DNA of 64,000 nucleotides from positions 106,906-170,905 of IMG/VR virus record IMGVR_UViG_3300042558_002764; one strand, 5' to 3'. Numbering within the stretch: position 1 is the stretch's first letter; every line of letters starts with the position of its first letter. Shown piece after piece: positions 8,237 through 57,829 of the stretch. The notes beneath the pieces are model-generated. The model did no database searches. It was not told the DNA's origin and saw nothing but the letters and a program-made list of their open reading frames with translations. This stretch comes from a virus (lineage: Duplodnaviria; Heunggongvirae; Uroviricota; Caudoviricetes). A program made the position numbers and the translations under genes.

Positions 8237-8445
8237 TGGGATTTAATAAAAGAATTATTAAGAAAGAAATTTTATTAGAAAGATTTAGACTTGAGGGTTA
8301 TCAAGGAATTATAAATTATATAGGTAATGCTGATGCATTACTTGGTTTAACTGATGAAATAAGGGAGATATTGGATATCACTTACTGTGATAATTGCCCA
8401 ACTAAAAAGAATGTTGAGATTAATAAAGTAATAAATGGCAAATAA
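8233..8445 (+). CDS. Hypothetical small protein.
   Basis: ORF overlapping both neighbouring genes. Confidence 0.35.
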   Translation: MMGFNKRIIKKEILLERFRLEGYQGIINYIGNADALLGLTDEIREILDITYCDNCPTKKNVEINKVINGK

Positions 8446-9184
8446 ATGGGAAACACAAGTTTGGTTAGAACCGATAGAACATAAATATTATCATAAGGAA
8501 ACTAACGAAGTTTTTAAATCAGTAACAACAATTTTATCATTATTGGAACCTCATTTCGATAGTGACTCAGTGGCTTACGCAATATCCCAACAGTCGGATG
8601 ATGTAAAAAAACCTGAGTATGTTGGTATGACCAAGGGTGAGATATTAGTAGAATGGGAACGTATTAATCGTGAGGCAAATGAATATGGTACTGAAGTCCA
8701 TGAAATATTGGAGAGGTACCTATTGGCTGATAGGATATACATACCTAAAAACGATTATGAAAGAGAGGTAATAAGTAAATTCCAAGAAGTAGATGATATG
8801 TCTGGTACAGTTTACCCAGAAGCAGTTTTATTTAGTGAAAAATATAAAATTTGTGGAACAGCGGATATTGTAGAGGATTGTGGTGATTATTTTAATATAT
8901 TGGACTTTAAAACAAATAAAGAACTAAATTACATATCAAAATACAATCAATGGTTAAATAAACCAGTATCACATTTATCAGATTGTCAATACAACGTATA
9001 CGCTCTACAACTATCTATATATGCATACATGATACAAATGCAAACAAGAAAAAAAGTTGGTAAACTACAGATATTTTATTTAAACCCACAAAAAGATTAT
9101 ACCTTTGAAAAAATTAATATGCCCTATTTGGGTAGGGATGCCAAAGCAATTTTGGACTATTGGTTAGAAAAAAATAAAAAATAA
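8435..9184 (+). CDS. RecB-family PD-(D/E)XK nuclease (Cas4/exonuclease-like).
   Basis: Motifs GTADIVED, ILDFKTNK (D-x-K) and QLSIYAY (QxxxY) are typical of RecB-like nucleases. Confidence 0.55.
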   Translation: MANKWETQVWLEPIEHKYYHKETNEVFKSVTTILSLLEPHFDSDSVAYAISQQSDDVKKPEYVGMTKGEILVEWERINREANEYGTEVHEILERYLLADRIYIPKNDYEREVISKFQEVDDMSGTVYPEAVLFSEKYKICGTADIVEDCGDYFNILDFKTNKELNYISKYNQWLNKPVSHLSDCQYNVYALQLSIYAYMIQMQTRKKVGKLQIFYLNPQKDYTFEKINMPYLGRDAKAILDYWLEKNKK

Positions 9185-15094: not shown

Positions 15095-17473
15095 ATGGAA
15101 AACTTGGTAAAAGAAGTTAAAACTGTTGTGCCTGAAAAGGCTAAAATCAGAGTTATATGGGATGATAGTCCAGAAAATTACACCCAGGAACGTGCAAAAA
15201 GAATTGCTAAATACTTTACTGAGAAATATAACAACCCTAATGTACAGGTTATTTTTAAACCTAAAAAAGTACTCACTGAAAATGGTGAAGTAGAAATGAC
15301 CGTTGCTGATAATGTAATGGATACTAATTATCAAAGAAAGTTATTTAAACAATGGATTACTGATAATAAAGTAGATGTTGATTGGGATAGACTCTTACGT
15401 TTAGATGATAAAGTAAACGAAAAATTATCACAAGAAAGAGAAACAGATTATAGATATCGTAATTGGTATATAAAGGAGTTAGAGTGGTCTAATTTCCTTT
15501 CTTATGGTGATGGTAATAAAATCTCTTTTAAAGAGTTAGAGGGTATTACAGTGATTACTTCAGACCCGTTAAATATGGGTGGTAAAACAACTCTTGCTTT
15601 AGATTTACTTTTATTCCTTTTCTTTAATACCACCACAAAAGGTAGTACCGCAATTAAAATGTTTAATCTTTTTAGAGAAGATAAAAATGAAGTAGTTGTT
15701 AAGGGTAAAGTTGCTATTGATGGTGTAGATTATATCATCGAGAGAACTGTTGTACGTAAAGCTAAAAGGACTGGTGATGAGTATACCACTAGAACAGACT
15801 TATCTTTCTATAGAACCTTACCTGATGGTAGTATTGAAAACTTAGAAGGTGAACAAAGAAGAGAAACAGAAGAATTTATAAAAAAATCGGTTGGTTCAGT
15901 GAATGATTTTTTATTAACAATTATTGCTGATGCCGACAATCTTGAGGACATCATTCACACCAAACCGACTGAAAAAGGGCGAATCCTATCTAGATTTATT
16001 GGATTAGAAGTTATTGAAGACAAAGAAACTATTGTCAAAGAAATGAAATCTAATTGGTCAAAAGGATTAAAATCAGACCAATACAATATTACAGACTTAA
16101 ATTCTGAGATTGGTGAACTAAAAAGTTTAATTTCTGAAAATGAAAACTCGATTAAAGAAAATGAATTAGAAATTAAATCCCTAGAACTTAATATTGAGTC
16201 TTCCACAGTCAAAAAAGAAAATTTAATTGGTAAAAAAATAGAGATAGATTCTGATGTTATTAATTTAAGACCCGAAGATATTGATAATGAAATTGATAGA
16301 ATCGAATTGTACGGTAAGAAGAAAAAGAGTGAGTATGAGGATACTAAAAAATCTTTTGATTCTATGACAGAACCAGTTTATGATGAAGATTTACATGAGG
16401 AATATGTAAAACAAGAACGAGGATTTAGTTTAGAAGTAGAGAGAGCTAAATCTAAAATAAAGGAAACTCAAAAAACAATTAAAAATTTAGAAGAGGGTGA
16501 GTTCTGTTCTTTATGTAAACAACCTTTAGCTGATGTAGACCATTCAGATGAAATTGAGGAAAATAAAGTATTATTAGATACTTTGGGTAGTGATTTATTG
16601 TCTTTATCCGAAAAATTAGTTGAGATTACAAATCTAGTTAAAGAACAAGATAACATTAAATCTTCTGTTTGGGAATACGATAGAACTTCTTTAACGGTTT
16701 CTAAACTAGAATTGGATTTAGAAAAATTAAGATTAGAAAGAAAAGAAAAATTAGACCTTAAAAAACGTTATGAAGATAATCTAGACAATATCCAAAAAAA
16801 TAAAGATTTGGAGAGTCAGATAATAGGTTATAATTCTAAAATAAGTGGATTAGAATTGGAAAAAACTAATAAAATTAAATTAGGTGAAAGATTATCTAAT
16901 GAAATTGAAACTTATAAAACAAAGATAAATAAGAACGAGGAATACATTAAAACTATTAAAGCAGAAGAAGAAATTAAAATAATTTTTGATGTTTATGCTA
17001 GAATGGTTGGTAAAAATGGTATCCTTAAAATAATAATGAGAAGTGTTATGCCTTTAATTAACTCAGAATTGGATAGATTACTAGTAGATACGGCATCATT
17101 TAAATTAGAAGTGGATATTAACGATAAGAAAGAAGTTGAATTTTTAATAGTAAAAGAAAACGAAAAAGGTGAGGCTATCAAATACCCTATTAATGAAGGT
17201 AGTGGATTTGAAAAAACAGTGTCATCATTAGCTTTACGTTGTGTAATGTCAAAAGTCAGTTGTCTACCAAAACCTAACATAATTGTTTTTGATGAGGTTT
17301 TTGGAAAGGTTGCTAACACTAATTTAGAGTTAGTTGGAAACTTCTTTCAGAAATGTTCAGAAATGTTCCCTAACATTTTTATTATAACACATAATGAAAT
17401 TGTTAAAGATTGGGCGACTAAAATAATAACAATTAAAAAGAAAAATAACATATCATCATTAATGGTACAATAA
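15095..17473 (+). CDS. Rad50/SbcC-like SMC ATPase (T4 gp46-like).
   Basis: Walker A NMGGKTT. Long coiled-coil with a CSLCKQP zinc hook. C-terminal Walker B IIVFDEVFG. Confidence 0.7.
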   Translation: MENLVKEVKTVVPEKAKIRVIWDDSPENYTQERAKRIAKYFTEKYNNPNVQVIFKPKKVLTENGEVEMTVADNVMDTNYQRKLFKQWITDNKVDVDWDRLLRLDDKVNEKLSQERETDYRYRNWYIKELEWSNFLSYGDGNKISFKELEGITVITSDPLNMGGKTTLALDLLLFLFFNTTTKGSTAIKMFNLFREDKNEVVVKGKVAIDGVDYIIERTVVRKAKRTGDEYTTRTDLSFYRTLPDGSIENLEGEQRRETEEFIKKSVGSVNDFLLTIIADADNLEDIIHTKPTEKGRILSRFIGLEVIEDKETIVKEMKSNWSKGLKSDQYNITDLNSEIGELKSLISENENSIKENELEIKSLELNIESSTVKKENLIGKKIEIDSDVINLRPEDIDNEIDRIELYGKKKKSEYEDTKKSFDSMTEPVYDEDLHEEYVKQERGFSLEVERAKSKIKETQKTIKNLEEGEFCSLCKQPLADVDHSDEIEENKVLLDTLGSDLLSLSEKLVEITNLVKEQDNIKSSVWEYDRTSLTVSKLELDLEKLRLERKEKLDLKKRYEDNLDNIQKNKDLESQIIGYNSKISGLELEKTNKIKLGERLSNEIETYKTKINKNEEYIKTIKAEEEIKIIFDVYARMVGKNGILKIIMRSVMPLINSELDRLLVDTASFKLEVDINDKKEVEFLIVKENEKGEAIKYPINEGSGFEKTVSSLALRCVMSKVSCLPKPNIIVFDEVFGKVANTNLELVGNFFQKCSEMFPNIFIITHNEIVKDWATKIITIKKKNNISSLMVQ

Positions 17474-26149: not shown

Positions 26150-26160
26150 TTAAAAAATTA

Positions 26161-26190
26161 AAACCACTTAAAATTTAGGTGGTTTTTTTA
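26161..26190 (+). terminator. Rho-independent terminator.
   Basis: Stem AACCAC/GTGGTT plus a T-run. Confidence 0.6.
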
Positions 26191-26244
26191 TGCTCAGAAG
26201 ATATTTATCTAATAAATAATAATCGATTATTAAAAAAACACAAA

Positions 26245-26409
26245 ATGGCAAAGGTATTAAGATACAATGAAGAAGAATTCGTAACTCTATTAGAGAACAT
26301 CGTAAAAAGAGTTAAAAAAGAACAAATGTTAGAAGAGGCTAGAAAAAATAGAAAAGCTAACCTATCTGAAAATTTCAATAGACTTAGAGAAAGAAGAAGT
26401 CGTAATTAA
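26245..26409 (+). CDS. Small basic protein. Start moved to the ATG at 26245.
   Basis: The track start at 26179 overlaps the terminator. An internal ATG gives MAKVLRYNEE. Confidence 0.3.
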   Translation: MAKVLRYNEEEFVTLLENIVKRVKKEQMLEEARKNRKANLSENFNRLRERRSRN

Positions 26410-26681: not shown

Positions 26682-28309
26682 TGTCATATAATTTAATTAA
26701 TAGAGACCCAATAGCTAAAGTAGGGATGAGAATCCGTATGGGTGAATTTGATGCCAACAATCCATCTAAAAAAAATTCTGAATGGAAACCTGATGTAAGT
26801 GCAGTAAAAAAAGATTTAGAAGGTACTATATATAAAATAGATGACATTGGTACCTTACATGTTAAGTGGGACAACGGGAGTACAATGGGGATTATACCTA
26901 ATATAGACACTTATACGTTATTACCATCTTTAAAAGACCAGGTAGATTTTAATGTTTTTGAGGCTGAAGATAAACCTATTTTAAATAATAGTAAGGCAAC
27001 TCCAGCAGGAAAAAATCTATCAAAAAAGTTTAAAGCACCAATGAAAAAACTTGGTGTAAAATCTGAATCTGAGGAAAAAAATCTATCAAAAGAGGTTGAT
27101 TGTGAAATGTGTGACCATTCTTGGGACATAGAACCAAAAGAAAAACACCCATACTTATGTCATGATTGTGGTTACGATAACAAATCTAAAAAATATAACT
27201 ACAAAGAACTTGAAAACTTTCGGAAGAAACATAAAAAAGAGGGTGAGTTAGAAGAAACTATGACAGCCGGTGGAGGAAATGGTTTAGCTGGTGCATCAGG
27301 TTATGCATTTACAGGTTCATTAGGTGGTACCAAAAAAACAAACGAAAACAAAATCATTAAAGTAAAAGATTTAATGAAAGAAGAAACTACCACAAGTGCT
27401 ATTTCAGCAACGGTAGATTTTGTGGTAGCTAATTTATTGGGTTGGGGTACAAAGGAGGATATGAGTCCACCTTGGCCTTCACCTAAAAGAAAAGCTGATA
27501 ATAATGAAATAGAAGATTGGTGGTGGCAAAAAATACCAACATACAATGGTGGTGTTATAACAGACCCTTATGCCAAAACAAACGAAACTTGGGACGACGA
27601 CCAATTAGAGGTTCATATTGACGGTGATATGACGCAATTTCAAAAAGACGTTTATAAAAACCCTAAAAAATATAAACAATCTGTTATTACAATTGACAAG
27701 GGGTTTGACCTTAACGTTAGTCCACCAAATAATGATTGGAAAACATCATTACAAAAAGGGGTAACTTTAAAAAACCAAAAATCAGAAGAACCCGCTGAAC
27801 ATTTTCGTAATAGACACTATTCAAGAACCATCAAGAAAGAAGAGGTATCTAATTTTGTAAATGATTTACTTTCAGAATCTAAGAAAAAAGAAAAGGAAAA
27901 AGAGGATTTAGAAGAAACAACAACATTTGGTTCTGTATTTGGTGGTGGTTTCCCTGTAGGTCCTGCTTTTGCAGCTAAGAAAGGGAAATGGACACCATCT
28001 AAAAAACCTATATGGAAAGGTGGTAAAATCATCCAAAGATTAGATAATACTGGTATTCTAGGTGAAAACACTTTATTTACTGAAATAAATAAAATTAAGT
28101 TTGTCCCAAAAGGAGGTAAATTTGTTAAGATTAAAGACAAATGTGCTAAATATAATAACCAACCATGGTGTAGTCAGGGAGCAATAGATAAACCTTTAGA
28201 ACTTAGTAATAATACCTTTGAAAGTATTAAAAAAGTCTCTAAAGAAACTGGTTTACCTTTTAATATTATCTTAGATAAAATCAAATTAAAGATACTAAAC
28301 AATAAATAA
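26681..28309 (+). CDS. Hypothetical Lys-rich protein with a zinc ribbon.
   Basis: CEMCDH...CHDCGY motif. 542 aa. Confidence 0.5.
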   Translation: MSYNLINRDPIAKVGMRIRMGEFDANNPSKKNSEWKPDVSAVKKDLEGTIYKIDDIGTLHVKWDNGSTMGIIPNIDTYTLLPSLKDQVDFNVFEAEDKPILNNSKATPAGKNLSKKFKAPMKKLGVKSESEEKNLSKEVDCEMCDHSWDIEPKEKHPYLCHDCGYDNKSKKYNYKELENFRKKHKKEGELEETMTAGGGNGLAGASGYAFTGSLGGTKKTNENKIIKVKDLMKEETTTSAISATVDFVVANLLGWGTKEDMSPPWPSPKRKADNNEIEDWWWQKIPTYNGGVITDPYAKTNETWDDDQLEVHIDGDMTQFQKDVYKNPKKYKQSVITIDKGFDLNVSPPNNDWKTSLQKGVTLKNQKSEEPAEHFRNRHYSRTIKKEEVSNFVNDLLSESKKKEKEKEDLEETTTFGSVFGGGFPVGPAFAAKKGKWTPSKKPIWKGGKIIQRLDNTGILGENTLFTEINKIKFVPKGGKFVKIKDKCAKYNNQPWCSQGAIDKPLELSNNTFESIKKVSKETGLPFNIILDKIKLKILNNK

Positions 28310-37955: not shown

Positions 37956-38005
37956 GTTTTTTTAATAGTAGATTTAATATATAATAAAAATAAAATATTG
38001 TTAAA

Positions 38006-38419
38006 ATGATTAAAGAAGGAAGTAAAGTAAAAGTACATTACACAGGTAAATTTGAAGATAATAATGTTTTCGATTCATCTACAGGTAAAGACCCAATCGA
38101 ATTCGTTGTTGGTGAGGGTAATTTGATTCTTGGTTTTGAACAAGGTGTTATGGGGTTGTCGGCAGGTGATAAAAAAACTGTTGAATTAGAACCAGAGCAA
38201 GCTTATGGACCATATAACGAAGAACTAGTTAACCAAGTACCTCTTGATAGAGTACCTGAAGGAGTACAAGCAGGTCAAATGTTGGAAGCACAAACAGAAG
38301 CGGGGCCAATTCCTGTTGTTGTTACTGATGTAAACGAAGAAACTGTTACCATCGATGCTAATCACCCATTGGCTGGTAGAAAATTGATTTTTGAATTGGA
38401 AATTGTTGAAGTAGCGTAA
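38006..38419 (+). CDS. FKBP-type peptidyl-prolyl cis-trans isomerase (SlyD/FkpB-like).
   Basis: VKVHYTGKFEDNNVFDSS...FVVGEGNLILGFEQGVMGLSAGDKK is an FKBP signature. Confidence 0.7.
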   Translation: MIKEGSKVKVHYTGKFEDNNVFDSSTGKDPIEFVVGEGNLILGFEQGVMGLSAGDKKTVELEPEQAYGPYNEELVNQVPLDRVPEGVQAGQMLEAQTEAGPIPVVVTDVNEETVTIDANHPLAGRKLIFELEIVEVA

Positions 38420-38440
38420 TTTTTAAAAAAATCATAAAAA

Positions 38441-38478
38441 AAATAATCCTATATGTTAATCATGTGGGATTTTTTTTT
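38441..38478 (+). terminator. Possible terminator.
   Basis: Imperfect stem AATCC/GGATT plus a T9 run. Confidence 0.35.
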
Positions 38479-38485
38479 ATCTTTG
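38478..38485 (+). promoter_or_regulatory. -7 box TATCTTTG.
   Basis: 4 nt upstream of the ATG at 38490. Confidence 0.4.
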
Positions 38486-38489
38486 TGTT

Positions 38490-38663
38490 ATGAAAAAACC
38501 CTGTAAAGAATGTCCTCACTTTATCCGTAATCGTCATAATGATATGATTGTGGAGTTCGGTGAAAAAACGGGAAAGAAACACAATTGTCACATGACGGAA
38601 GGAAAAAAAGATTTGTGGAATGTGACGGATAAAAAACTTGAATGTTATGGAAGTAAAAACTAA
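38490..38663 (+). CDS. Small Cys/His-rich protein (57 aa), below the track length cutoff.
   Basis: MKKPCKECPHF...HNCHMTEG...ECYG. Has its own -7 box. Overlaps the start of the ORF at 38638. Confidence 0.25.
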   Translation: MKKPCKECPHFIRNRHNDMIVEFGEKTGKKHNCHMTEGKKDLWNVTDKKLECYGSKN

Positions 38664-38976
38664 ATTTGGAACATATATAGAAATGGAAACAGAAACTAGT
38701 ACAAAAATAAGTACAGATAAACTCGGAGTGTTTGTTGAACGACTTAAAAAAATAGGAATTGATGTAAAACTATCAGGAAATTTTCCTTGGGTTTATCTTG
38801 GTAAAATCAATGGTGTTAGAGTTACTGAAACATTTTATGCTAATCACGGGTTTACTGTGATGTTTCTTCCTAGTAGAATGGATAGTCCACCATCCGAGTT
38901 TACAGACATTACGGAGATTTTTAAATTAATTAGAAAATATACAAAAAAACCTATTGACAAATCAGAAAATAAATAG
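38638..38976 (+). CDS. Hypothetical protein.
   Basis: ORF. Confidence 0.4.
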   Translation: MNVMEVKTKFGTYIEMETETSTKISTDKLGVFVERLKKIGIDVKLSGNFPWVYLGKINGVRVTETFYANHGFTVMFLPSRMDSPPSEFTDITEIFKLIRKYTKKPIDKSENK

Positions 38977-39024
38977 TATAATTTATAACTGTTTTAAAGA
39001 AACCTAATTAAAAAAATAGAAATT

Positions 39025-40467
39025 ATGTCAAGATTAACTGAAGCATTACAAACTGAAAACACAACCACTAAGAACGGGATGGAAACTAATTCATCTTCTC
39101 TTAATGAGTGTGTTAACCTTTTCTTCTCCATTGGAGCAATGAGAGGTAAAAGTTCTGAGAGTGTTGTAAAACTTTTCTCAAAGGCTTTCAGTGAAGAACC
39201 AACTACAGCATTAAGAATCCTTTTTTGGGCAAGAGATGTTAGAGGTGGTGCTGGTGAGAGAAAAATCTTTAGAGATATTTTATCTTACCTAGTTGATAAC
39301 TACTCAAAAGTAGTTAAAGTTAATCTTAACTTAATTCCTGAATACGGGAGATGGGATGACGTTCATATCCTTTTCGGAACTGAATTGGAAAATGACGCCA
39401 TCACACTTCTTGTAGAAGGTTTAAAAAGTGGTAATGGTTTATGTGCTAAATGGATGCCCCGTAAAGGTTTGGTATTTAATAAAGTACGTAAAGCACTTAA
39501 GTTGGACCCAAAATCCCTTAGAAAATTACTTGTGTCTTTGTCAAACACGGTAGAACAAAAAATGTGTTCGAAAAGTTGGGCAGAGATTGAGTATTCAAAG
39601 ACACCATCTTTGGCTATGTCAAGGTATACAAAAGCTTTTGGCAGAAACGACCAAGAAAGATTTGGTCAATTTATTGAAGCCCTTCAAAAAGGTGAAACTA
39701 AAGTTAACGCCGGAGCTTTGTATCCTTACGATGTTACCAAGAATCTTAGATTCGGTAATAAAGATTTGGCTAATGAACAATGGAAAGCCCTACCAAATTA
39801 TATGGAAGGTTCAACAGAACTTGTCCTACCTTTGGTTGACGTTTCAGGTTCAATGGATTGTTCGGTAGGAGGTAATCCAAACCTTACATGTATGGAGGTG
39901 GCTATTTCTTTGGGTATGTACATCTCTGAAAGAAATGAGGGAGCATTTAAAGATATGTTTATGACATTTTCTTCAAATCCCGAAATTCAAAAATTGATGG
40001 GTCCACTTAGTGACCGTTACAATCAATTAGCTAGAGCTAAATGGGGTATGTCAACTAATTTAGAAGCAGCGTTCAAGACTATCTTGAATCAAGCAGTTAA
40101 ATTTGGTGTTCCACAGGAAGAGATGCCAACAAAGATTCTTATCCTATCCGATATGGAGTTTGATTCCGCTACTAGTAGTGGTTGGGGAAATGAATCTGAT
40201 TGGAATCCCTCGGCTATGTCGATGATTGATGAAATGTACACTAACGCTGGTTATGTAAAACCTGGAATTATTTTCTGGAACCTACATTCCAACGGGGGTA
40301 ATTTCCCAGCAAGATTTGATGAGGTTGGAACTGCTTTAATTAGTGGTTTCAGTCCATCAATCTTGAAATCGGTTCTGAATAATCCTAACAGTTTAACACC
40401 TGTTAATATTATGAATGAAACCGTACATTCAGAAAGATATGAACCTGTAAAGGTTTGGATTCTTTAA
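39025..40467 (+). CDS. Ro60-like protein (TROVE-like helical domain plus C-terminal vWA). Alternative reading: a DUF2828-type vWA protein.
   Basis: About 260 aa of helical N-terminus, then a vWA domain with MIDAS D-x-S-x-S (LVDVSGSMD, about residue 265) and following beta-strand motifs. Confidence 0.5.
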   Translation: MSRLTEALQTENTTTKNGMETNSSSLNECVNLFFSIGAMRGKSSESVVKLFSKAFSEEPTTALRILFWARDVRGGAGERKIFRDILSYLVDNYSKVVKVNLNLIPEYGRWDDVHILFGTELENDAITLLVEGLKSGNGLCAKWMPRKGLVFNKVRKALKLDPKSLRKLLVSLSNTVEQKMCSKSWAEIEYSKTPSLAMSRYTKAFGRNDQERFGQFIEALQKGETKVNAGALYPYDVTKNLRFGNKDLANEQWKALPNYMEGSTELVLPLVDVSGSMDCSVGGNPNLTCMEVAISLGMYISERNEGAFKDMFMTFSSNPEIQKLMGPLSDRYNQLARAKWGMSTNLEAAFKTILNQAVKFGVPQEEMPTKILILSDMEFDSATSSGWGNESDWNPSAMSMIDEMYTNAGYVKPGIIFWNLHSNGGNFPARFDEVGTALISGFSPSILKSVLNNPNSLTPVNIMNETVHSERYEPVKVWIL

Positions 40468-40971
40468 AATATTGTGGTATTGAGGAATAATTGCAGCAAA
40501 ATTAAAATCTTAAATTTATAGCTACATAAGAGAGGGCTTTGATAACCCGTCTAACCACAAGGGTGTAAAGGTGAAAGCCGGGGACCACTCAGAGTTAGAC
40601 AAAAGAGTCAAACGATTCTGTTACCACAAAATTATTAAAAAGGTGTAATGGGTACGTCAAACGAGACTATAAGACCCAATAAACGAATGGTTTCTGCAAA
40701 TTCTTCTAGAAACTTGTAAGAACGACGAGGGGTTTTACCGATTTACCCCAAATTAAATTATAAATTGGCGACCATAGGAGAGTTTAAACGTGGGAAAATC
40801 TCACACTTGAGGTCGTAAAACATACCTCTTGATTATCACAAGTAAAAATGGTAGTTGGATTTGTCTCAATCAAATAAAAGACACCCGAACCAAAATGGGT
40901 TAATAATATTGGGGTGGTTACTCAGCCACCGAAAATAACAAAAGGACCACCATTCCGACACCTAATTTTTT
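40468..40971 (+). ncRNA. Candidate structured ncRNA locus (Y-RNA/YrlA-like?) downstream of the Ro60-like gene.
   Basis: About 500 nt with no ORF of 60 aa or more on either strand. It is locally GC-richer and has multiple hairpins (for example GGGGT..ACCCC and GGTGG..CCACC). A strong terminator caps it. Confidence 0.35.
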
Positions 40972-40998
40972 AAAGGGAGCTTGTCTCCCTTTTTTTAT
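40972..40998 (+). terminator. Rho-independent terminator.
   Basis: Stem AGGGAG/CTCCCT plus a T7 run. Confidence 0.7.
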
Positions 40999-41051
40999 TT
41001 TACTATACTTAATAATTAACGGTTTTATTATATTTATTTAATATTAAATTA

Positions 41052-41276
41052 TTGGAAATGACTAGAATAGAAGAGATATTTTTTGAGGCTTTTGAATTGG
41101 GTATTCAAAATAAAATGTACGACACAGTATCTAAAATGGTTGGTAGTGGCGATTATAAATACGTGGAACTCCGCCAAATTTATGAAATTGCTTTTGAAAA
41201 AGAAAAAAAGGTTTTAATTAATAATAATTTATATGAACAAACAAACAGTTCAGAAGTTTATCAACCGAGAGCTTAA
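41052..41276 (+). CDS. Hypothetical small protein.
   Basis: ORF overlapping the next gene by 44 nt. Confidence 0.3.
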   Translation: MEMTRIEEIFFEAFELGIQNKMYDTVSKMVGSGDYKYVELRQIYEIAFEKEKKVLINNNLYEQTNSSEVYQPRA

Positions 41277-41964
41277 GGCTAAAGATATTTTCTATTTAAA
41301 AGAAGTTACCAAAAAAGAGGCTTACGATTTTGTTAAAACTTATCACTACTTGGGTGAAGCTAAATTTTTTGCTAAATTTTCTTATGCTGTAATTGATAGG
41401 GAGACTGAAGATATCATTGGTGTTGCTACTTTCTCTAATCCACAAGGTAATGTAGCTTTAAAGGGTTGGTTTGGTTTATCCAATGATAACCAAACGGTTT
41501 TAGAACTTAGTAGACTTTGTGTTTTACCTGAATTAAATGGTACAAACCTAACTTCATACCTATTAGGTGGTAGTATTAGATTACTAAAAAAAGAAGGTGT
41601 TAAGGCAGTTATAACATTAGCGGATGATAGTAGACATAGCGGTAGTATATATCAGGTCTGTAACTTCACCTATTACGGCTTAACAGATAAGAAATCAGAT
41701 TTTTTTAGATGGGATGGTAAGGTTAACCCTAGAGGTTCAACAAAAGAAGTCCAAGGTGTTTGGATTCCTAGAACAAGGAAACATAGATATGCTTATATTA
41801 TTGATAAATCTTTAAAGTGCTTATATATTGAAGAAATGAGACCACAAAAAGGTGATACAAATGAATATGATTGTTGTGCCGGTAAAAAACAAATTTACGA
41901 CAATAGATTTAAAAAATGGTATTCTTGCCCCAAATGTGATGAAATAACTGAATTAGCTTTTTAA
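41233..41964 (+). CDS. GNAT-fold-like acyltransferase with a C-terminal zinc ribbon (paralog A).
   Basis: ELSRLCVLPELNGTNLTSYLL resembles GNAT motif A. The C-terminus has CC...CPKC. It is paralogous to the ORF at 41966. Confidence 0.4.
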   Translation: MNKQTVQKFINRELKAKDIFYLKEVTKKEAYDFVKTYHYLGEAKFFAKFSYAVIDRETEDIIGVATFSNPQGNVALKGWFGLSNDNQTVLELSRLCVLPELNGTNLTSYLLGGSIRLLKKEGVKAVITLADDSRHSGSIYQVCNFTYYGLTDKKSDFFRWDGKVNPRGSTKEVQGVWIPRTRKHRYAYIIDKSLKCLYIEEMRPQKGDTNEYDCCAGKKQIYDNRFKKWYSCPKCDEITELAF

Positions 41965-41965
41965 A

Positions 41966-42760
41966 ATGAAATATTTTTTTGAAATTAAAGAGATAGATAA
42001 AACTCTTGCTATAGAATTTGTACAAGAAAGACACTATTCAAAAGTAATGCCTAAATTAACCAAACATTGGTTAGGTTGTTTTTTAAACAATGAGTTAGTT
42101 GGTGTTGTTACATTGGGGTGGGGGACACAACCCTTACAAACAATTAAAAAGTTATTCCCGAACTTAAAATCAGAGGATTATTACGAAATTGGTAAGATGT
42201 GTATGGATGATTCTATGCCTAGAAATTCAGAGTCACAGATGTTAGCTCAAGTAGTTAGATGGATGAAAACTAATTTACCTGAAAAGAAATTTCTTTATAC
42301 ATGGGCAGATGGAATTGTGGGTAAAGTTGGGTATGTGTACCAAGGGTCTAATTTTTATTATGGTAATTTTATTTGGACCGATATCTACATATCACCTTTA
42401 GGGGAGAAAATACACCCAAGAAGTTCAAAAGCTTTATTGAAAGAAAATGCTGAATTTTCGGGTAAAGAAAAATTATTTTGGATGACCCCTGATTTTATAA
42501 AAATAAAAGGTATTCGTAGAATTAGAGGAAAACAATTTAGATATATATACCCCCTGAATAAAAAATCAAAAGAACTTTTAAGAAGAGAATCTACGGTAGT
42601 ATGGAACAAAATATACCCAAAAGAAGTTGACCTGTTATGGAAAGAACAAAAAGGTAAAGGTGATTATGTTTTATTAACGAGTAAACCTGAAATGAATTTA
42701 AGTGTTGTTGAATATAATCAAAACAATGTTAATGCACATAAAAAGTTAAAGAAATCTTAG
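41966..42760 (+). CDS. GNAT-fold-like protein (paralog B).
   Basis: Shares the motifs HY..., VGVVTLGWG and GKMCMDDSMPRNSESQMLAQ with paralog A. Confidence 0.4.
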   Translation: MKYFFEIKEIDKTLAIEFVQERHYSKVMPKLTKHWLGCFLNNELVGVVTLGWGTQPLQTIKKLFPNLKSEDYYEIGKMCMDDSMPRNSESQMLAQVVRWMKTNLPEKKFLYTWADGIVGKVGYVYQGSNFYYGNFIWTDIYISPLGEKIHPRSSKALLKENAEFSGKEKLFWMTPDFIKIKGIRRIRGKQFRYIYPLNKKSKELLRRESTVVWNKIYPKEVDLLWKEQKGKGDYVLLTSKPEMNLSVVEYNQNNVNAHKKLKKS

Positions 42761-51930: not shown

Positions 51931-53856
51931 ATGGATAAAAATTTTTACATTAATAAATTAAATAAAACTTTAATTTCACAAACACATAACCCTCTTTTTT
52001 ATAAAGGGGATATAGTAGAAGGTTCTAAAATTCTAACTAAAGAAGTTGTAGACTCAATTAATGTTGATAGATGTTCTATATGGTTATACAACAAAAATAA
52101 AACATCTATTGTTTGCCAACAATTATATGTTAAATCTGAAAATATGTGGTATGATGGTTTAGAAATCTTTGAAAAGGATTTTGGACCGTATTTCGAAGAA
52201 TTAATAAAGAACCCAATAATAATAGCTAATGATGCTGAAAAACATCCAGCAACATCTTGTTTTACTGATGGTTATTTAAAACCACTGGGTATTAAATCTA
52301 TGTTAGATGTACCTATCATTTATTTTGGGGAAACTATTGGTGTTATATGTATTGAAAGTTTTACATTACGTGAATGGGATTCTTTTGAGGTTGATTTTAC
52401 TCAATTATTATCTTCTTTATACACTTTTGCTTATTCAATAAAAGAAACAAACAATTTAAATAAAAAAATAGAAGAAACAGAAAAATTTATTGACGTATCG
52501 ACAATTATATCTACTGCTGATAAAAGAGGTAAAATTACATATGTTAATAAAAAATTTGAGGATGTTTCTGGGTGGTCTTTGGATGAGGTAGTTGGTAAAG
52601 ACCATGTTATTGTTAATTCGGGATTACAACCTGATGGATATTGGGGTAAAATGTATGAAACGGTAATGAAAGGTGATGTATGGAATGACGTTGTTACCAA
52701 TAAAGGAAAATCAGGAGAATTATATTACGTTGATACTTTTATTAGAGCAATTTTTGATACCGATGGTAAATTGGATGGATTTGCTTCAATAAGACAAGAT
52801 GTTACAGAACTTAAAAAAAAGGAAGTTGAAATTCGCAATAGAATGAACGCGATAAATAAATCTAACGCAGTTATTGAGTTTGATTTAGAAGGAAACATCA
52901 TTTTTGCTAATAATTTGTTTTTAGAAACTATGGGATATTCTTTACAGGATGAAGTAGTTGGAAAACACCATAGAATTTTTATAGATGAGGAATACTCAAA
53001 AAGTGAAGAATACTCTCTTTTTTGGGAAAAATTAAATGAAGGGGTGTTATTTACCGGTGAAATTACTAGAATTAAAAAAGACGGTTCTTTAGTGTATCTA
53101 CAAGCAACATACAATCCAGTTATCGGTTTAGATGGTAAGGTTTATCGTGTTATGAAAATCGCGACAGATATCACCAATTCCTACGAACAAAAGAAAGAAA
53201 TTGAAAAGAAAAACACTTACCTAGAACATGCGGCTAAAATATTAAGACACGATATGCATTCAGGTATTAATACTTATATGCCAAGAGGATTAAGTTCTTT
53301 AGAAAGAAGATTAACCCCCGAAGATATTAAAACTTTAAAAATTGAGGCCCCAATTAAAATGATTAAAGAGGGTTTAAAACATTCCCAAAAAGTATATAAA
53401 GGGGTTTACGAATTTACAAATCTTGTAAAGAAAGATGTTGTTTTAAATAAAACGGAATGTAATTTAAAAGATATACTTGAGGATTATTTATCAGCGACAG
53501 CATATAGTAGTCAAGTTATTATTGATGAGTTACCAACGATAGAAGTTAATGAACCATTATTCTGTACCGCAGTCGATAATTTAATTCGTAATGGGTTAAA
53601 GTATAATGATAGTAATACAAAATTTGTTAAAATATATATGGAAGATGGTAATCTAATTATACAAGACAACGGTAGAGGGATTACACAAAAAGATTTTATT
53701 CATTTATCCCAACCATATACCAGAAAAGAAGGCCAAAAAGAATCTGGAACTGGTCTAGGGCTTAATATATGTGTAGCTATTTTAGAAGAACATAAATTTA
53801 ATATTTCGTGTGAGAAAAATGACATAGGGACAAAAATGAAAATTGAACTAAAATGA
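51931..53856 (+). CDS. Cytoplasmic sensor histidine kinase (GAF, PAS, PAS, DHp, HATPase_c).
   Basis: GAF-like N-terminus and two PAS-like segments. Divergent H-box ILRHDMHSG. N-box NLIRNGLKYN, G1 DNGRGI, G2 GTGLGLNI. Confidence 0.65.
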   Translation: MDKNFYINKLNKTLISQTHNPLFYKGDIVEGSKILTKEVVDSINVDRCSIWLYNKNKTSIVCQQLYVKSENMWYDGLEIFEKDFGPYFEELIKNPIIIANDAEKHPATSCFTDGYLKPLGIKSMLDVPIIYFGETIGVICIESFTLREWDSFEVDFTQLLSSLYTFAYSIKETNNLNKKIEETEKFIDVSTIISTADKRGKITYVNKKFEDVSGWSLDEVVGKDHVIVNSGLQPDGYWGKMYETVMKGDVWNDVVTNKGKSGELYYVDTFIRAIFDTDGKLDGFASIRQDVTELKKKEVEIRNRMNAINKSNAVIEFDLEGNIIFANNLFLETMGYSLQDEVVGKHHRIFIDEEYSKSEEYSLFWEKLNEGVLFTGEITRIKKDGSLVYLQATYNPVIGLDGKVYRVMKIATDITNSYEQKKEIEKKNTYLEHAAKILRHDMHSGINTYMPRGLSSLERRLTPEDIKTLKIEAPIKMIKEGLKHSQKVYKGVYEFTNLVKKDVVLNKTECNLKDILEDYLSATAYSSQVIIDELPTIEVNEPLFCTAVDNLIRNGLKYNDSNTKFVKIYMEDGNLIIQDNGRGITQKDFIHLSQPYTRKEGQKESGTGLGLNICVAILEEHKFNISCEKNDIGTKMKIELK

Positions 53857-54467
53857 TAAAACTAAAAAATTTATTAACCATATTTTTCATAAGTATGGTA
53901 AGTATAGTGTATTCACAACCAACCTACCCTATCCAGACACAATTAAAAGGTGATTCTGTGGTTATTCTTACAAAAAAACAATCTGATGATATTAATTCAC
54001 TAATTGAGAATCAAAAAATTAGAATACAAAAATATAAAACAGAAATAAAATTAGTTAATGATACTAACACGTTATTAAATAACGATATTAAAATAAAAGA
54101 TAGTGTTATTAACCAATTGGATAGTTTGTTAACCGTCCAAAACAATTATTACGATAGTTTAATTTCTAAAATAGATACGTTAGAGAATTGGATTTTATCG
54201 TCGTCGATAGATAATGGGTACCTATATTATTCTTGGCAAGACTCAACAGTTAAAGTTATTGATTTAAGTTTGTATATGTTAGTATCGCATAGAGGAAGTG
54301 GTAATTATAGTTTAATTACAAGAGGTGATGTTACTAATATATATTATTGGAAACAAATAAATCTACTTAAAGAAGAAAGTCCTGAGATTGGTTGGGAATT
54401 AAATATATCCCCAAAATATAAACCAAGAATAGTATTATTCCCATATAAATTAACCCCAAAATTATGA
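53853..54467 (+). CDS. Secreted or periplasmic protein with a signal peptide.
   Basis: N-terminal MIKLKNLLTIFFISMVSIVYSQ. Lies between the two kinase genes. Confidence 0.45.
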   Translation: MIKLKNLLTIFFISMVSIVYSQPTYPIQTQLKGDSVVILTKKQSDDINSLIENQKIRIQKYKTEIKLVNDTNTLLNNDIKIKDSVINQLDSLLTVQNNYYDSLISKIDTLENWILSSSIDNGYLYYSWQDSTVKVIDLSLYMLVSHRGSGNYSLITRGDVTNIYYWKQINLLKEESPEIGWELNISPKYKPRIVLFPYKLTPKL

Positions 54468-55867
54468 TAAAAAATATTTTAATAACAATAATGTTTTTGG
54501 GTTTTTTTACTTCTTTAAATGTAAATTCACAGACTGATAATAACCCCAAAAAAACAGAGATTGAACCTACATGTCCTAGTGATAGTCGTATAACTAGTTT
54601 AATTAAAAAATTAAATTACGAACCAAATAAAAAATTAACTAAATACCAATCAAGCTTATGTCAAGAAATTGGTATCTCTTTTTATAATAAAGGTATGTAT
54701 GATGAGTCAGATTGGTATTTAGATAAGGTTAGTACCTATATTGATGTTGTTGATTTAAAACCTGAAAAAGTTTTTGACACACCTAAAGAAGAACCCGTAC
54801 AAGAGTTAAGTGACTCAGAATTATCTAGTATTAAAGCCGACCAAAAATTTTTAGATGACCTACCAAAATCATACGATAATTTATCTAAAAAAGATATAAA
54901 AAAAATTGCTGATGAGATAGAGTCAAAACTCCAAAAACTATTAAAAGAAAAAAAAGAATTATTAAAAAATAAAGCTAGTCAAGAAGTTATCAGTTCTAAA
55001 ACAAGTACTATACAAATATTAGGTAAAGAAAAAAATATCATTAATCTTAGTGTTAAAAATGATGATTTAGTTACCGATAAAAAAACCTTAAAAAAATATT
55101 TATGGTGGTCCACAATTGTTCTTTCTGTTTTGGTTTTAGGTATTATTGTTTTATTACAAAGAAAAACAATTAAAGTCCAAGACATAGAAATCGAAAACCA
55201 ATTAAAAGACATTAACAAGAAAAACACTTACCTTGAATATGCGGCTAGAATAATTAGACACGACATGCATTCAGGTATTAACACCTATATACCAAGAGGG
55301 TTATCGTCATTAGAAAAAAGAATTTCAATTGAGGAAATGAATAACTTAAAAATTACACCCTCAATTAAAATGATAAAAGATGGTTTGGCACACACACAAA
55401 AAGTATATAAAAGTGTTTATGAGTTTACAAACCTTGTGAAAAATACTGTAGTTTTAGATAGAAATATGGTTGATATAAAAGAATCTTTATTAAAATACTT
55501 AACAAATACATCATATAAAAATCAGGTAGAAATTAGTGAATTAGTTACACTAAATGTAAATGAAACTCTTTTTTGGAACGCTATTGATAATTTAATTAAA
55601 AATGGGTTAAAATATAATAGTAGTGAAAATAAAGAAATTAAAATTTACATGGATAATAATGATTTAATTATTGAAGATAATGGTGTTGGATTTTCACAAA
55701 AAGAGTTCGAAAGAACAACAGGTGAATATTTAAATAAAAAGAGTAATTCCGAAGTTGGTTTAGGTTTAGGTATAACCAAAACAATTTTAGAAGAACATGG
55801 TTTTAGTATGATGTGTGAAAAAATTAACACTGGTACAAAAATAACGGTTAAATTAAATAAAAATTAA
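54464..55867 (+). CDS. Membrane sensor histidine kinase (periplasmic domain, one transmembrane helix, DHp, HATPase_c), paralog of the kinase core at 51931.
   Basis: Signal peptide, then transmembrane segment YLWWSTIVLSVLVLGIIVLL. Kinase core about 65% identical to the ORF at 51931 (IIRHDMHSGINTY, NLIKNGLKYN, DNGVGF, GLGLGI). Confidence 0.65.
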   Translation: MIKNILITIMFLGFFTSLNVNSQTDNNPKKTEIEPTCPSDSRITSLIKKLNYEPNKKLTKYQSSLCQEIGISFYNKGMYDESDWYLDKVSTYIDVVDLKPEKVFDTPKEEPVQELSDSELSSIKADQKFLDDLPKSYDNLSKKDIKKIADEIESKLQKLLKEKKELLKNKASQEVISSKTSTIQILGKEKNIINLSVKNDDLVTDKKTLKKYLWWSTIVLSVLVLGIIVLLQRKTIKVQDIEIENQLKDINKKNTYLEYAARIIRHDMHSGINTYIPRGLSSLEKRISIEEMNNLKITPSIKMIKDGLAHTQKVYKSVYEFTNLVKNTVVLDRNMVDIKESLLKYLTNTSYKNQVEISELVTLNVNETLFWNAIDNLIKNGLKYNSSENKEIKIYMDNNDLIIEDNGVGFSQKEFERTTGEYLNKKSNSEVGLGLGITKTILEEHGFSMMCEKINTGTKITVKLNKN

Positions 55868-57759: not shown

Positions 57760-57829
57760 ACCGAGGCTTAGTGGTAAAGAACTATCTCTCATAAGGATGG
57801 TCAAGTGGGTTCAATTCCCATACTCGGTA
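57760..57829 (+). tRNA. tRNA-Met-like (anticodon CAT) with a short, irregular D-arm.
   Basis: Acceptor ACCGAGG/ACTCGGT with 6 of 7 pairs, anticodon arm TATCT-CTCATAA-GGATG, T-arm GTGGG-TTCAATT-CCCAT. Confidence 0.4.

Follow-up and report, generated by a model that had tools for sequence, protein, structure and literature searches.

Particles of Ro60 with Y RNAs form a classic, still poorly understood RNA surveillance system, and to our knowledge those of bacteria and phages have so far been traced only through genes annotated as TROVE. Ro60 holds a stem of the Y RNA on its outer surface and takes the 3' ends of RNAs into its central cavity. Ro60 genes with adjacent Y RNAs are found in more than 250 bacteria and phages (PMC4201824); the Y RNAs measure 80-130 nucleotides (nt) (PMC4201824) and carry the motif GNCGAA(N)G, or CGAA (PMC4201824, PMC12135203), and the Ro60 protein of phage phiLo binds two adjacent Yrl RNAs and the host PNPase (PMC12135203). 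Here we describe a locus in which a Ro60-like protein of another family, DUF2828, is encoded directly upstream of a large structured RNA. It lies in a stretch of 64,000 nt (hereafter the window) from a virus of the Caudoviricetes, positions 106,906 to 170,905 of the IMG/VR record IMGVR_UViG_3300042558_002764, and all coordinates below are those of the window unless a related locus (L-numbers are the labels of the related loci compared) is named. Our reading, to which we give a probability of roughly 60%, is that the DUF2828 protein and a class of partner RNAs of its own would make up one ribonucleoprotein (RNP).

The region 3' of the gene is a genuine conserved structured RNA composed of two modules. 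It is 72-90% identical across nine related viral contigs, and nhmmer recovers the full-length RNA in five further contigs whose proteins are merely ~60% identical to that of the window; in all of them the RNA is found directly 3' of the gene and on the same strand, and the intergenic identity among relatives is as high as that of the coding region. In an alignment of 14 sequences, entire hairpins are present in some clades and missing in others, and RNAalifold predicts 78 pairs, 35 of them with compensatory changes. Standard pairing holds in 96.2% of the alignment cells, versus 39-49% when the 3' partners are slid by one to three columns, changes on both sides affect 35 pairs versus 5-10 in the slid control, and 0 of 500 column shuffles matched the observed pairing and compensation values. 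The structure is called real because of this comparison with relatives and not because of the folding energy: an earlier note on this DNA, made from the letters alone, had claimed stable structure, and the minimum free energy of the single sequence (-126 kcal/mol, z = -2.3 versus dinucleotide shuffles) is only mildly unusual by itself, while covariation in relatives bears the structure out. The note's suggestion that the ~500 nt may hold several RNAs was right in the sense of two modules.

The locus looks like one transcription unit, since a promoter, the gene, the RNA and a terminator stand in series:

38954-38982, + strand: sigma-70-type promoter TTGACA-17-TATAAT, 12 of 12 consensus matches, 43 nt 5' of the start codon
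39025-40467, + strand: open reading frame (ORF) of the 480-amino acid (aa) protein, ATG start, from the ORF call
39100-39789, + strand: helical N-terminal half of the protein (residues ~26-255), which superposes on the HEAT-repeat (TROVE) ring of Ro60 in fold searches
39817-40434, + strand: vWA domain (residues ~265-470), with the MIDAS (adhesion site dependent on metal ions) residues D272, S274 and S276 (39838-39852), T344 and D376
40468-40971, + strand: RNA region
40972-40998, + strand: intrinsic terminator, 8-pair stem at 40972-40992 with a 5-nt loop, T run to ~40998

Four further claims of the earlier note held here. The first is the 480-aa ORF with a helical N-terminus and a vWA domain with MIDAS, which the ORF call, an AlphaFold2 model and an alignment of 46 homologs all agree on. 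The stretch at 40468-40971, described as free of ORFs, contains none of at least 60 aa on either strand, and its sole ORF of at least 30 aa is one of 31 aa with a GTG start on the minus strand (40866-40961). The strong terminator is also there, and 6 of its 8 stem pairs covary in relatives. As for the locally raised guanine-plus-cytosine (GC) content, the RNA region has 36.7%, versus 30.8% for the window and 12-24% in two flanking intergenic stretches; the rise is real yet modest, to the same level as the GC content of the gene.

The two modules and their helices are as follows (for helix finding in general, alignments and a covariance model were relied on, and scripts prone to spurious AT-rich partners served as a guide only):

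40472-40629, + strand: RNA module A, 158 nt (alignment, covariation and inspection)
40473-40479 / 40622-40628, + strand: outer helix of module A, UGUGGUA/UACCACA (covariation), with a small internal loop next to it
40484-40488 / 40615-40619, + strand: inner signature helix of module A, GGAAU/AUUCU
40491-40499, + strand: signature of module A, UUGCAGCAA, preceded by AA on the 5' side, with GU after the 3' strand
40534-40548 and 40549-40600 (enclosing 40562-40589), + strand: interior hairpins of module A
40641-40963, + strand: RNA module B, 323 nt (alignment, covariation and inspection)
40641-40646 / 40958-40963, + strand: outer helix of module B, AGGUGU/ACACCU
40650-40677, + strand: side hairpin of module B
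40685-40691 / 40949-40955, + strand: inner signature helix of module B, GAAUGGU/ACCAUUC
40691-40699, + strand: signature of module B, UUUCUGCAA, with CG after the 3' strand
40738-40768, 40769-40815, 40833-40854, 40863-40882, 40883-40900 and 40913-40930, + strand: interior helices of module B

Closing stems that join the 5' and 3' ends are present and covary in both modules. The interior of module A is a 125-nt domain, and that of module B is a conserved domain of 255 nt, in which six or more helices covary and long unpaired stretches are invariant. A pseudoknot (40729-40732/40746-40749) and the helix 40549-40555/40594-40600 are tentative, being paired in 65-75% of the cells of the 14 sequences. 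Some relatives (L004, L007 to L011 and L014) have in addition a conserved element of ~50 nt (columns 1-50 of alignment A2, containing AUAGGUGAUGAAAGAUACUCGG and a 6-bp hairpin) between the stop codon and module A, an element that the window, L003 and L006 lack, and in L014 there is a good promoter-like site, TTGACT-17-TATATT, immediately after the stop codon. The contig L087 (IMGVR_UViG_3300042885_000543, 7554 nt) carries the RNA (nhmmer E 6e-156) and a protein C-terminus with 100% identity to that of the window protein, and it probably represents this very phage or one nearly identical to it.

Profiles of the full RNA reach two clades only with nhmmer, and the wider family is visible via a short signature alone. 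This signature consists of an A-rich 5' flank, a helix of 5-7 bp with a basal G-C pair that otherwise covaries freely, the string NUNC(A/U)GCAA straight after the 5' strand of the helix and YG straight after the 3' strand. In 79 viral loci, the 470 nt that surround and follow the gene's stop codon contain the string TT.?C.GCAA at 3.9 per kilobase (kb), against 0.16 per kb elsewhere on the gene's strand and 0.23 per kb on the other strand, and it is present in 70 of these loci and in 19 of the 26 protein clusters at 75% identity. The units of other clades are small (62-90 nt), come in one to three tandem copies and have an A-rich interior of ~40 nt. When 15 of them from about a dozen lineages were aligned, the 7-pair closing helix was 97% paired, versus 30-51% in slid controls, with 6 of the 7 pairs covarying and the basal G-C invariant, as were CAGCAA and a G two bases past the helix. 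The covariance model built from the small units (R1) gave 92 matches at E ≤ 1 in the window plus 82 loci, all 92 on the gene's strand and nearly all just 3' of the gene, and recovered loci missed by the plain string search. By alignment and inspection, both modules of the window show all the features of the signature, beside the gene and on its strand.

In many small units the interior is A/C-rich, contains two or three copies of AGCAA at intervals of 15-17 nt, ends in an A run before the 3' strand and looks largely unstructured (for example, L071:5438-5510, L037:5435-5504 and L056:5454-5521). L003 (IMGVR_UViG_3300016484_000450), the closest long relative of the window, has an extra small signature unit at L003:9140-9204 (GGAUUG-UUACAGCAA...CAAUCC-UG; R1 54.9 bits, E 1e-9), 3.7 kb 3' of the gene, where it directly follows a terminator and precedes by 5 nt the tRNA that opens an array; near the tRNA arrays of the window there is no counterpart.

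The linkage of the signature to the gene family is tight and strand-specific in phages whose hosts differ widely. In the viral collection, an exact 16-mer of module B occurs at 58 places, 41 of them chance matches and 17 true homologs of the RNA, and all 17 homologs have the gene, or its 3' end on contigs cut short, directly upstream on the same strand. Much farther away, assemblies chosen as one genome per species contain homologs of the protein with 34-60% identity, in Clostridia, Erysipelotrichaceae, Selenomonas, Chloroflexi, cyanobacteria, Enterococcus and assemblies labelled DPANN archaea. R1 gave 59 matches in these loci, 57 of them on the strand of the gene, and most of the 21 with E < 1e-3 lie within ~400 nt of it, either 5' or 3'. 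The closing-helix sequences of these distant units are wholly different, with ACAGCAA and UG unchanged. Among cultured phages, R1 units were located just 5' of the gene in Listeria phage LP-048 (two), just 3' of it in Staphylococcus phage 6ec (three) and between the tRNA genes 3' of it in Escherichia coli phage wV8 (three), while Campylobacter phage F352 has one, with tRNA-Tyr on one side and the gene on the other. The predicted units lie at 27534-27467 and 27444-27377 of LP-048 (KJ094033.1, minus strand), at 8332-8406, 8409-8480 and 8481-8551 of 6ec (KJ804259.1), at 26152-26229, 26318-26387 and 26714-26793 of wV8 (NC_012749.1) and at 14346-14256 of F352 (MT863717.1, minus strand). A filter-free R1 scan of 78 kb of wV8 returned E < 0.01 only for the three units beside the gene, and the second tRNA cluster of this phage has no unit; therefore, the units track the gene and not tRNA clusters generally.

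Turning to the protein, the AlphaFold2 model made from the 46 homologs (predicted local distance difference test 79, predicted template modeling score 0.77) is all-helical to about residue 254, followed by an alpha/beta domain that opens with a strand at residues 267-272. The stretch LVDVSGSMD corresponds to residues 270-278, and D272, S274, S276, T344 and D376 are invariant in the 46 aligned homologs, so that the MIDAS motif (DxSxS...T...D) is complete. In Pfam, the protein belongs above threshold to DUF7788 (PF25043, 1.1e-45) and DUF2828 (PF11443, 6.5e-35), in PHROGs it matches phrog_850, "RNA-binding protein" (4.5e-149), and NCBIfam gave no match. With the predicted model as query, the top five Foldseek matches are all Ro60/TROVE structures (E 3e-10 to 2e-7, whole-length alignments), and hhalign aligned the family profile with phiLo Ro60 over 181 columns of the vWA half (92.5%, E 4.8e-7). 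Sequence and profile searches of the PDB reached Ro60 at E 0.37 at best, in the MIDAS stretch only, and the Pfam family vWA_Ro60 (PF25045) was matched at E 0.21 and 11.9 bits, under its cutoff of 27.7, as is also the case for phiLo Ro60. The gene of phiLo Ro60 was located as a control, and its protein lies only slightly above the TROVE threshold of Pfam (28 bits, E 1.7e-6). The predicted architecture, a helical-repeat ring and then a vWA domain, is that of Ro60, and the window protein is probably a distant Ro60 homolog, at least in its C-terminal half.

The protein family comprises at least 7,982 clusters at 90% identity (E ≤ 1e-5) and is present in at least 711 records of cultured phages, with members among Felix O1-like, Listeria P100-like (Pecentumvirus, e.g., LP-048), KVP40-like and Campylobacter phages and cluster L mycobacteriophages. 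These genes are annotated as hypothetical, vWFA, DUF2828, "RNA-binding protein" or, in mycobacteriophages, "Ro-like RNA binding protein", and overexpression of one of them, LeBron gp53, is moderately toxic (PMC13148394).

Genes for tRNAs adjoin the gene in wV8, LP-048, 6ec, Lumos, F352 and the L012 clade, where tRNA arrays are located 3' of the units, and in LP-048 a gene for an RtcB-like RNA ligase lies 1.3 kb 3' of the DUF2828 gene (L221:5352-6497), a placement that resembles the rsr-yrlBA-rtcBA arrangement of Salmonella. In 7 of 80 loci, belonging to several lineages (L071:5875-6606, L062:5784-6521 and L048:5722-6534, and also L064, L068 and L074), a protein of 244-271 aa with a PolyA_pol head domain (CCA-adding enzyme/poly(A) polymerase family) is encoded directly 3' of the RNA units. 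We discarded the CCA-adding-like gene as a general partner, given these 7 loci only and its absence from the window. In Cronobacter phage S13, two tRNA-like genes of 121 and 113 nt (NC_028773.1 132702-132944, equivalent to L002:5255-5497) lie 0.5 kb 3' of the homolog; they have normal acceptor, D and T arms, with an insert of 52-55 nt in place of the anticodon loop, and both inserts contain GUUUGUAUUCAGCA, after which come more T-arm-like pieces and an unannotated gap of 670 nt. These long tRNA-like genes contain "UAUUCAGCA", yet they gave no R1 match and were rejected as units.

In the window, the RNA is followed by two tandem paralogous genes of the Mom family (41233-41964 and 41966-42760; Pfam Mom, 1e-22 and 1e-54), only the second of which is present at the corresponding position of L003. 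A weak extra match to the Rfam tRNA model (30.3 bits, just over threshold) was found between tRNA-Lys and tRNA-Ala at 57760-57829, where ARAGORN makes no call. Few of the large ORFs of the window match PHROGs (an SbcC/gp46-like protein at 15095-17473 and kinase-like proteins at 51931-55867), and the DNA matches of 38000-42000 to the cultured-phage collection are confined to the Ro-like gene; hence, this phage is distant from cultured phages.

By analogy with Ro60 and Y RNAs, the signature helix would be the docking site of the protein and the variable interior the effector part, which might control access to the protein or engage a further partner, either tRNA-processing or repair enzymes or an exoribonuclease of the host (for example, PNPase). 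The particle may handle tRNA or other structured RNA in the course of infection, possibly in concert with exoribonucleases of the host in the manner of Rsr-Y RNA-PNPase; we infer this role from the circumstantial facts that the units are often embedded among phage tRNA genes and that RtcB and CCA-adding-like proteins are occasional neighbors. In the lineage of the window, the RNA has expanded to a multihelix domain of 323 nt, which could be a scaffold recruiting host RNA decay or tRNA-processing enzymes while the phage infects the cell. The DUF2828 family is also found in thousands of metagenomic lineages. We put at even odds the broader proposal that the DUF2828 "Ro-like" proteins and the NUNCAGCAA stem-loops constitute a second, mostly phage-borne lineage of Ro60-type RNPs with a recognition code of its own.

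Several observations weigh against an RNP of this kind. The motif, NUNC(A/U)GCAA...YG, is unlike the GNCGAA(N)G of Y RNAs, the RNA is devoid of the tRNA-like T/D-arm domain of YrlA-type Y RNAs, and the R1 signature was not found in the Yrl region of phiLo. On the protein side, there is no match to Pfam TROVE (PF05731) at E ≤ 1, and neither the PDB profile search nor hhalign found a sequence-level link to Ro60 for the N-terminal half. R1 finds units in only about one-quarter of the distant genome loci, has no match in S13 and is borderline in KVP40 and Lumos (Lumos E 0.05, in a 380-nt gap after the gene). Because their interiors are 125-255 nt long, R1 is unable to score the two modules of the window, whose assignment to the signature family comes from alignment and inspection. 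Lastly, no convincing promoter was found between the stop codon and the RNA in the window, so the RNA could act solely as a 3' untranslated region (UTR).

This last point leads to one of the two main rivals of the RNP, an unlikely one in our judgment, in which the RNA is a cis-acting part of the gene's mRNA (a 3' UTR here and a 5' UTR elsewhere) that stabilizes the message or serves as an operator by which the protein, or another factor, controls the protein's synthesis, and has no function in trans. That would suit the single terminator that closes gene and RNA in the window, and several distant loci where units are found 10-120 nt 5' of the start codon, but the position of the units varies (upstream, downstream, past an intervening ORF or between tRNA genes), promoter-like sites can be seen by eye directly before the units of L014 and the L012 clade, the units come as one to three tandem copies, and the 255-nt conserved interior of module B exceeds the needs of an operator. 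The other main rival, to which we attach a low probability, takes the units for stable RNAs or processing elements of phage tRNA operons that travel with the gene by sharing tRNA regions, with no binding to the protein. Such an origin agrees with the units that sit among the tRNA genes of wV8, precede the first tRNA of L003 by 5 nt or separate tRNA-Tyr from the gene in F352, and with the tRNA arrays that follow the units of the L012 clade; however, ARAGORN found no tRNA within 6 kb of the RNA in the window, the second tRNA cluster of wV8 is devoid of units, and many loci with units have no tRNA nearby, the DUF2828 gene being the sole constant neighbor. As for the region not being a functional RNA at all (a coding region that is degenerate or lacks annotation, or an intergenic spacer structured by chance), the modest single-sequence z of -2.3 is what could be said for it, and we give it almost no credence: it is refuted by the hairpin-sized indels between relatives and the 35 compensatory pairs, and the absence of any ORF of at least 60 aa and an intergenic identity matching that of the coding region point the same way.

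The proposal of the earlier note, a canonical Ro60 ortholog accompanied by YrlA-type Y RNAs, is very improbable too. The Ro60-like fold, the adjacent RNA whose 5' and 3' ends pair in a closing stem, and a "ACGAAUGG" on the 5' strand of module B that loosely resembles GNCGAA(N)G (PMC4201824) would fit such a system, but this CGAA-like string is not conserved among the units, the modules measure 158 and 323 nt, as against the 80-130 nt of Y RNAs (PMC4201824), and R1 is blank on the phiLo Yrl RNAs. Rfam at E ≤ 10 gave no family match, and no Y RNA, for the RNA region and no tRNA or tRNA-like match in 40300-41200, and ARAGORN, run on the whole window, called neither a tRNA nor a tmRNA in the region; at the gathering threshold, the window, S13 and 15 related loci gave only tRNAs and chance-level matches. 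Since Rfam is blank as well on the validated Yrl region of phiLo, its negative result for the window RNA carries little weight. At the level of family membership, canonical Ro60 is largely refuted: the window protein is outside the TROVE family as Pfam defines it and is confidently assigned to DUF2828/DUF7788, the outcome on which the note itself had staked the strict ortholog claim, and with no tRNA-like domain, no Y RNA/YrlA match and the R1 signature absent from phiLo Yrl, the YrlA-type RNA with tRNA-like modules falls too. What survives of the "phage Ro60-Y RNA module" is a Ro60-like module whose RNA is of a class different from YrlA, and the coupling of a structured RNA to the gene is upheld by the alignment with related phages, the covariation and the R1 linkage.

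The RNA family, its signature and its linkage to the gene were not found in Rfam 15 or in the literature searched. Our results suggest that the same logic of a gene plus an adjacent RNA, with a different RNA signature, is followed by a far larger sister family, whose annotations read DUF2828, "RNA-binding protein" or "Ro-like". If the RNP exists, it would provide a function for a family of at least 7,982 protein clusters (90% identity), could account for gaps without annotation within and next to the tRNA clusters of phages and would add a new RNA family to the catalogue. Phage-host pairs that are easy to work with (E. coli wV8 and other Felix O1-like phages, Listeria LP-048 and Staphylococcus 6ec) contain both the family and the units, and the hypothesis is therefore directly testable.

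Compared with the known systems, the locus is closest to Ro60/Rsr and its Y RNAs (Salmonella YrlA/YrlB and Deinococcus Yrn1; PMC4201824), with which it shares, by predicted fold, the helical ring and the vWA domain with MIDAS. As in those systems, one to three noncoding RNAs are encoded adjoining the gene, the 5' and 3' ends pair in a stem that bears a short conserved motif and encloses a variable interior, and RNA repair genes, such as rtcB in LP-048, are occasional neighbors. Besides the motif and the tRNA-like domain, the differences lie in the Pfam families of the protein (DUF2828 and DUF7788 instead of TROVE) and in the size of the RNAs, the modules of the window being larger than Y RNAs and their small relatives measuring 62-90 nt. 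Thermus phage phiLo (Ro60 with Yrl1/Yrl2; PDB 9KOP and 9L5Y; PMC12135203) likewise combines a phage protein with two adjacent RNAs, and the vWA half of its Ro60 can be aligned with the family at the profile level, including the stretch LVDVSGSM...N.NL; nevertheless, phiLo Ro60 passes the Pfam TROVE threshold and the window protein does not, and the phiLo RNAs, with their CGAA motif, are located 5' of the gene, whereas the RNA of the window is 3' of it. The "Ro-like RNA binding proteins" of cluster L mycobacteriophages (Lumos gp56 and LeBron gp53; PMC13148394) belong to the same family (34% identity over the full length), so the Ro-like nature of these proteins is already used in phage annotation. 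No partner RNA of the Lumos and LeBron genes is described in the texts searched.

GOLLD and ROOL are large structured phage RNAs found near tRNA genes, and both are in Rfam. The RNA described here resembles them in being a large conserved phage noncoding RNA of unknown function in genomes rich in tRNA genes, and differs from them in having no Rfam match at E ≤ 10, in being tied to one protein gene and in being built of modules that share a closing signature. Systems in which a Ro60-type protein has a partner RNA encoded next to it are known as a kind; this locus would add to them a new class of RNA, unusually large and elaborate in the lineage of the window.

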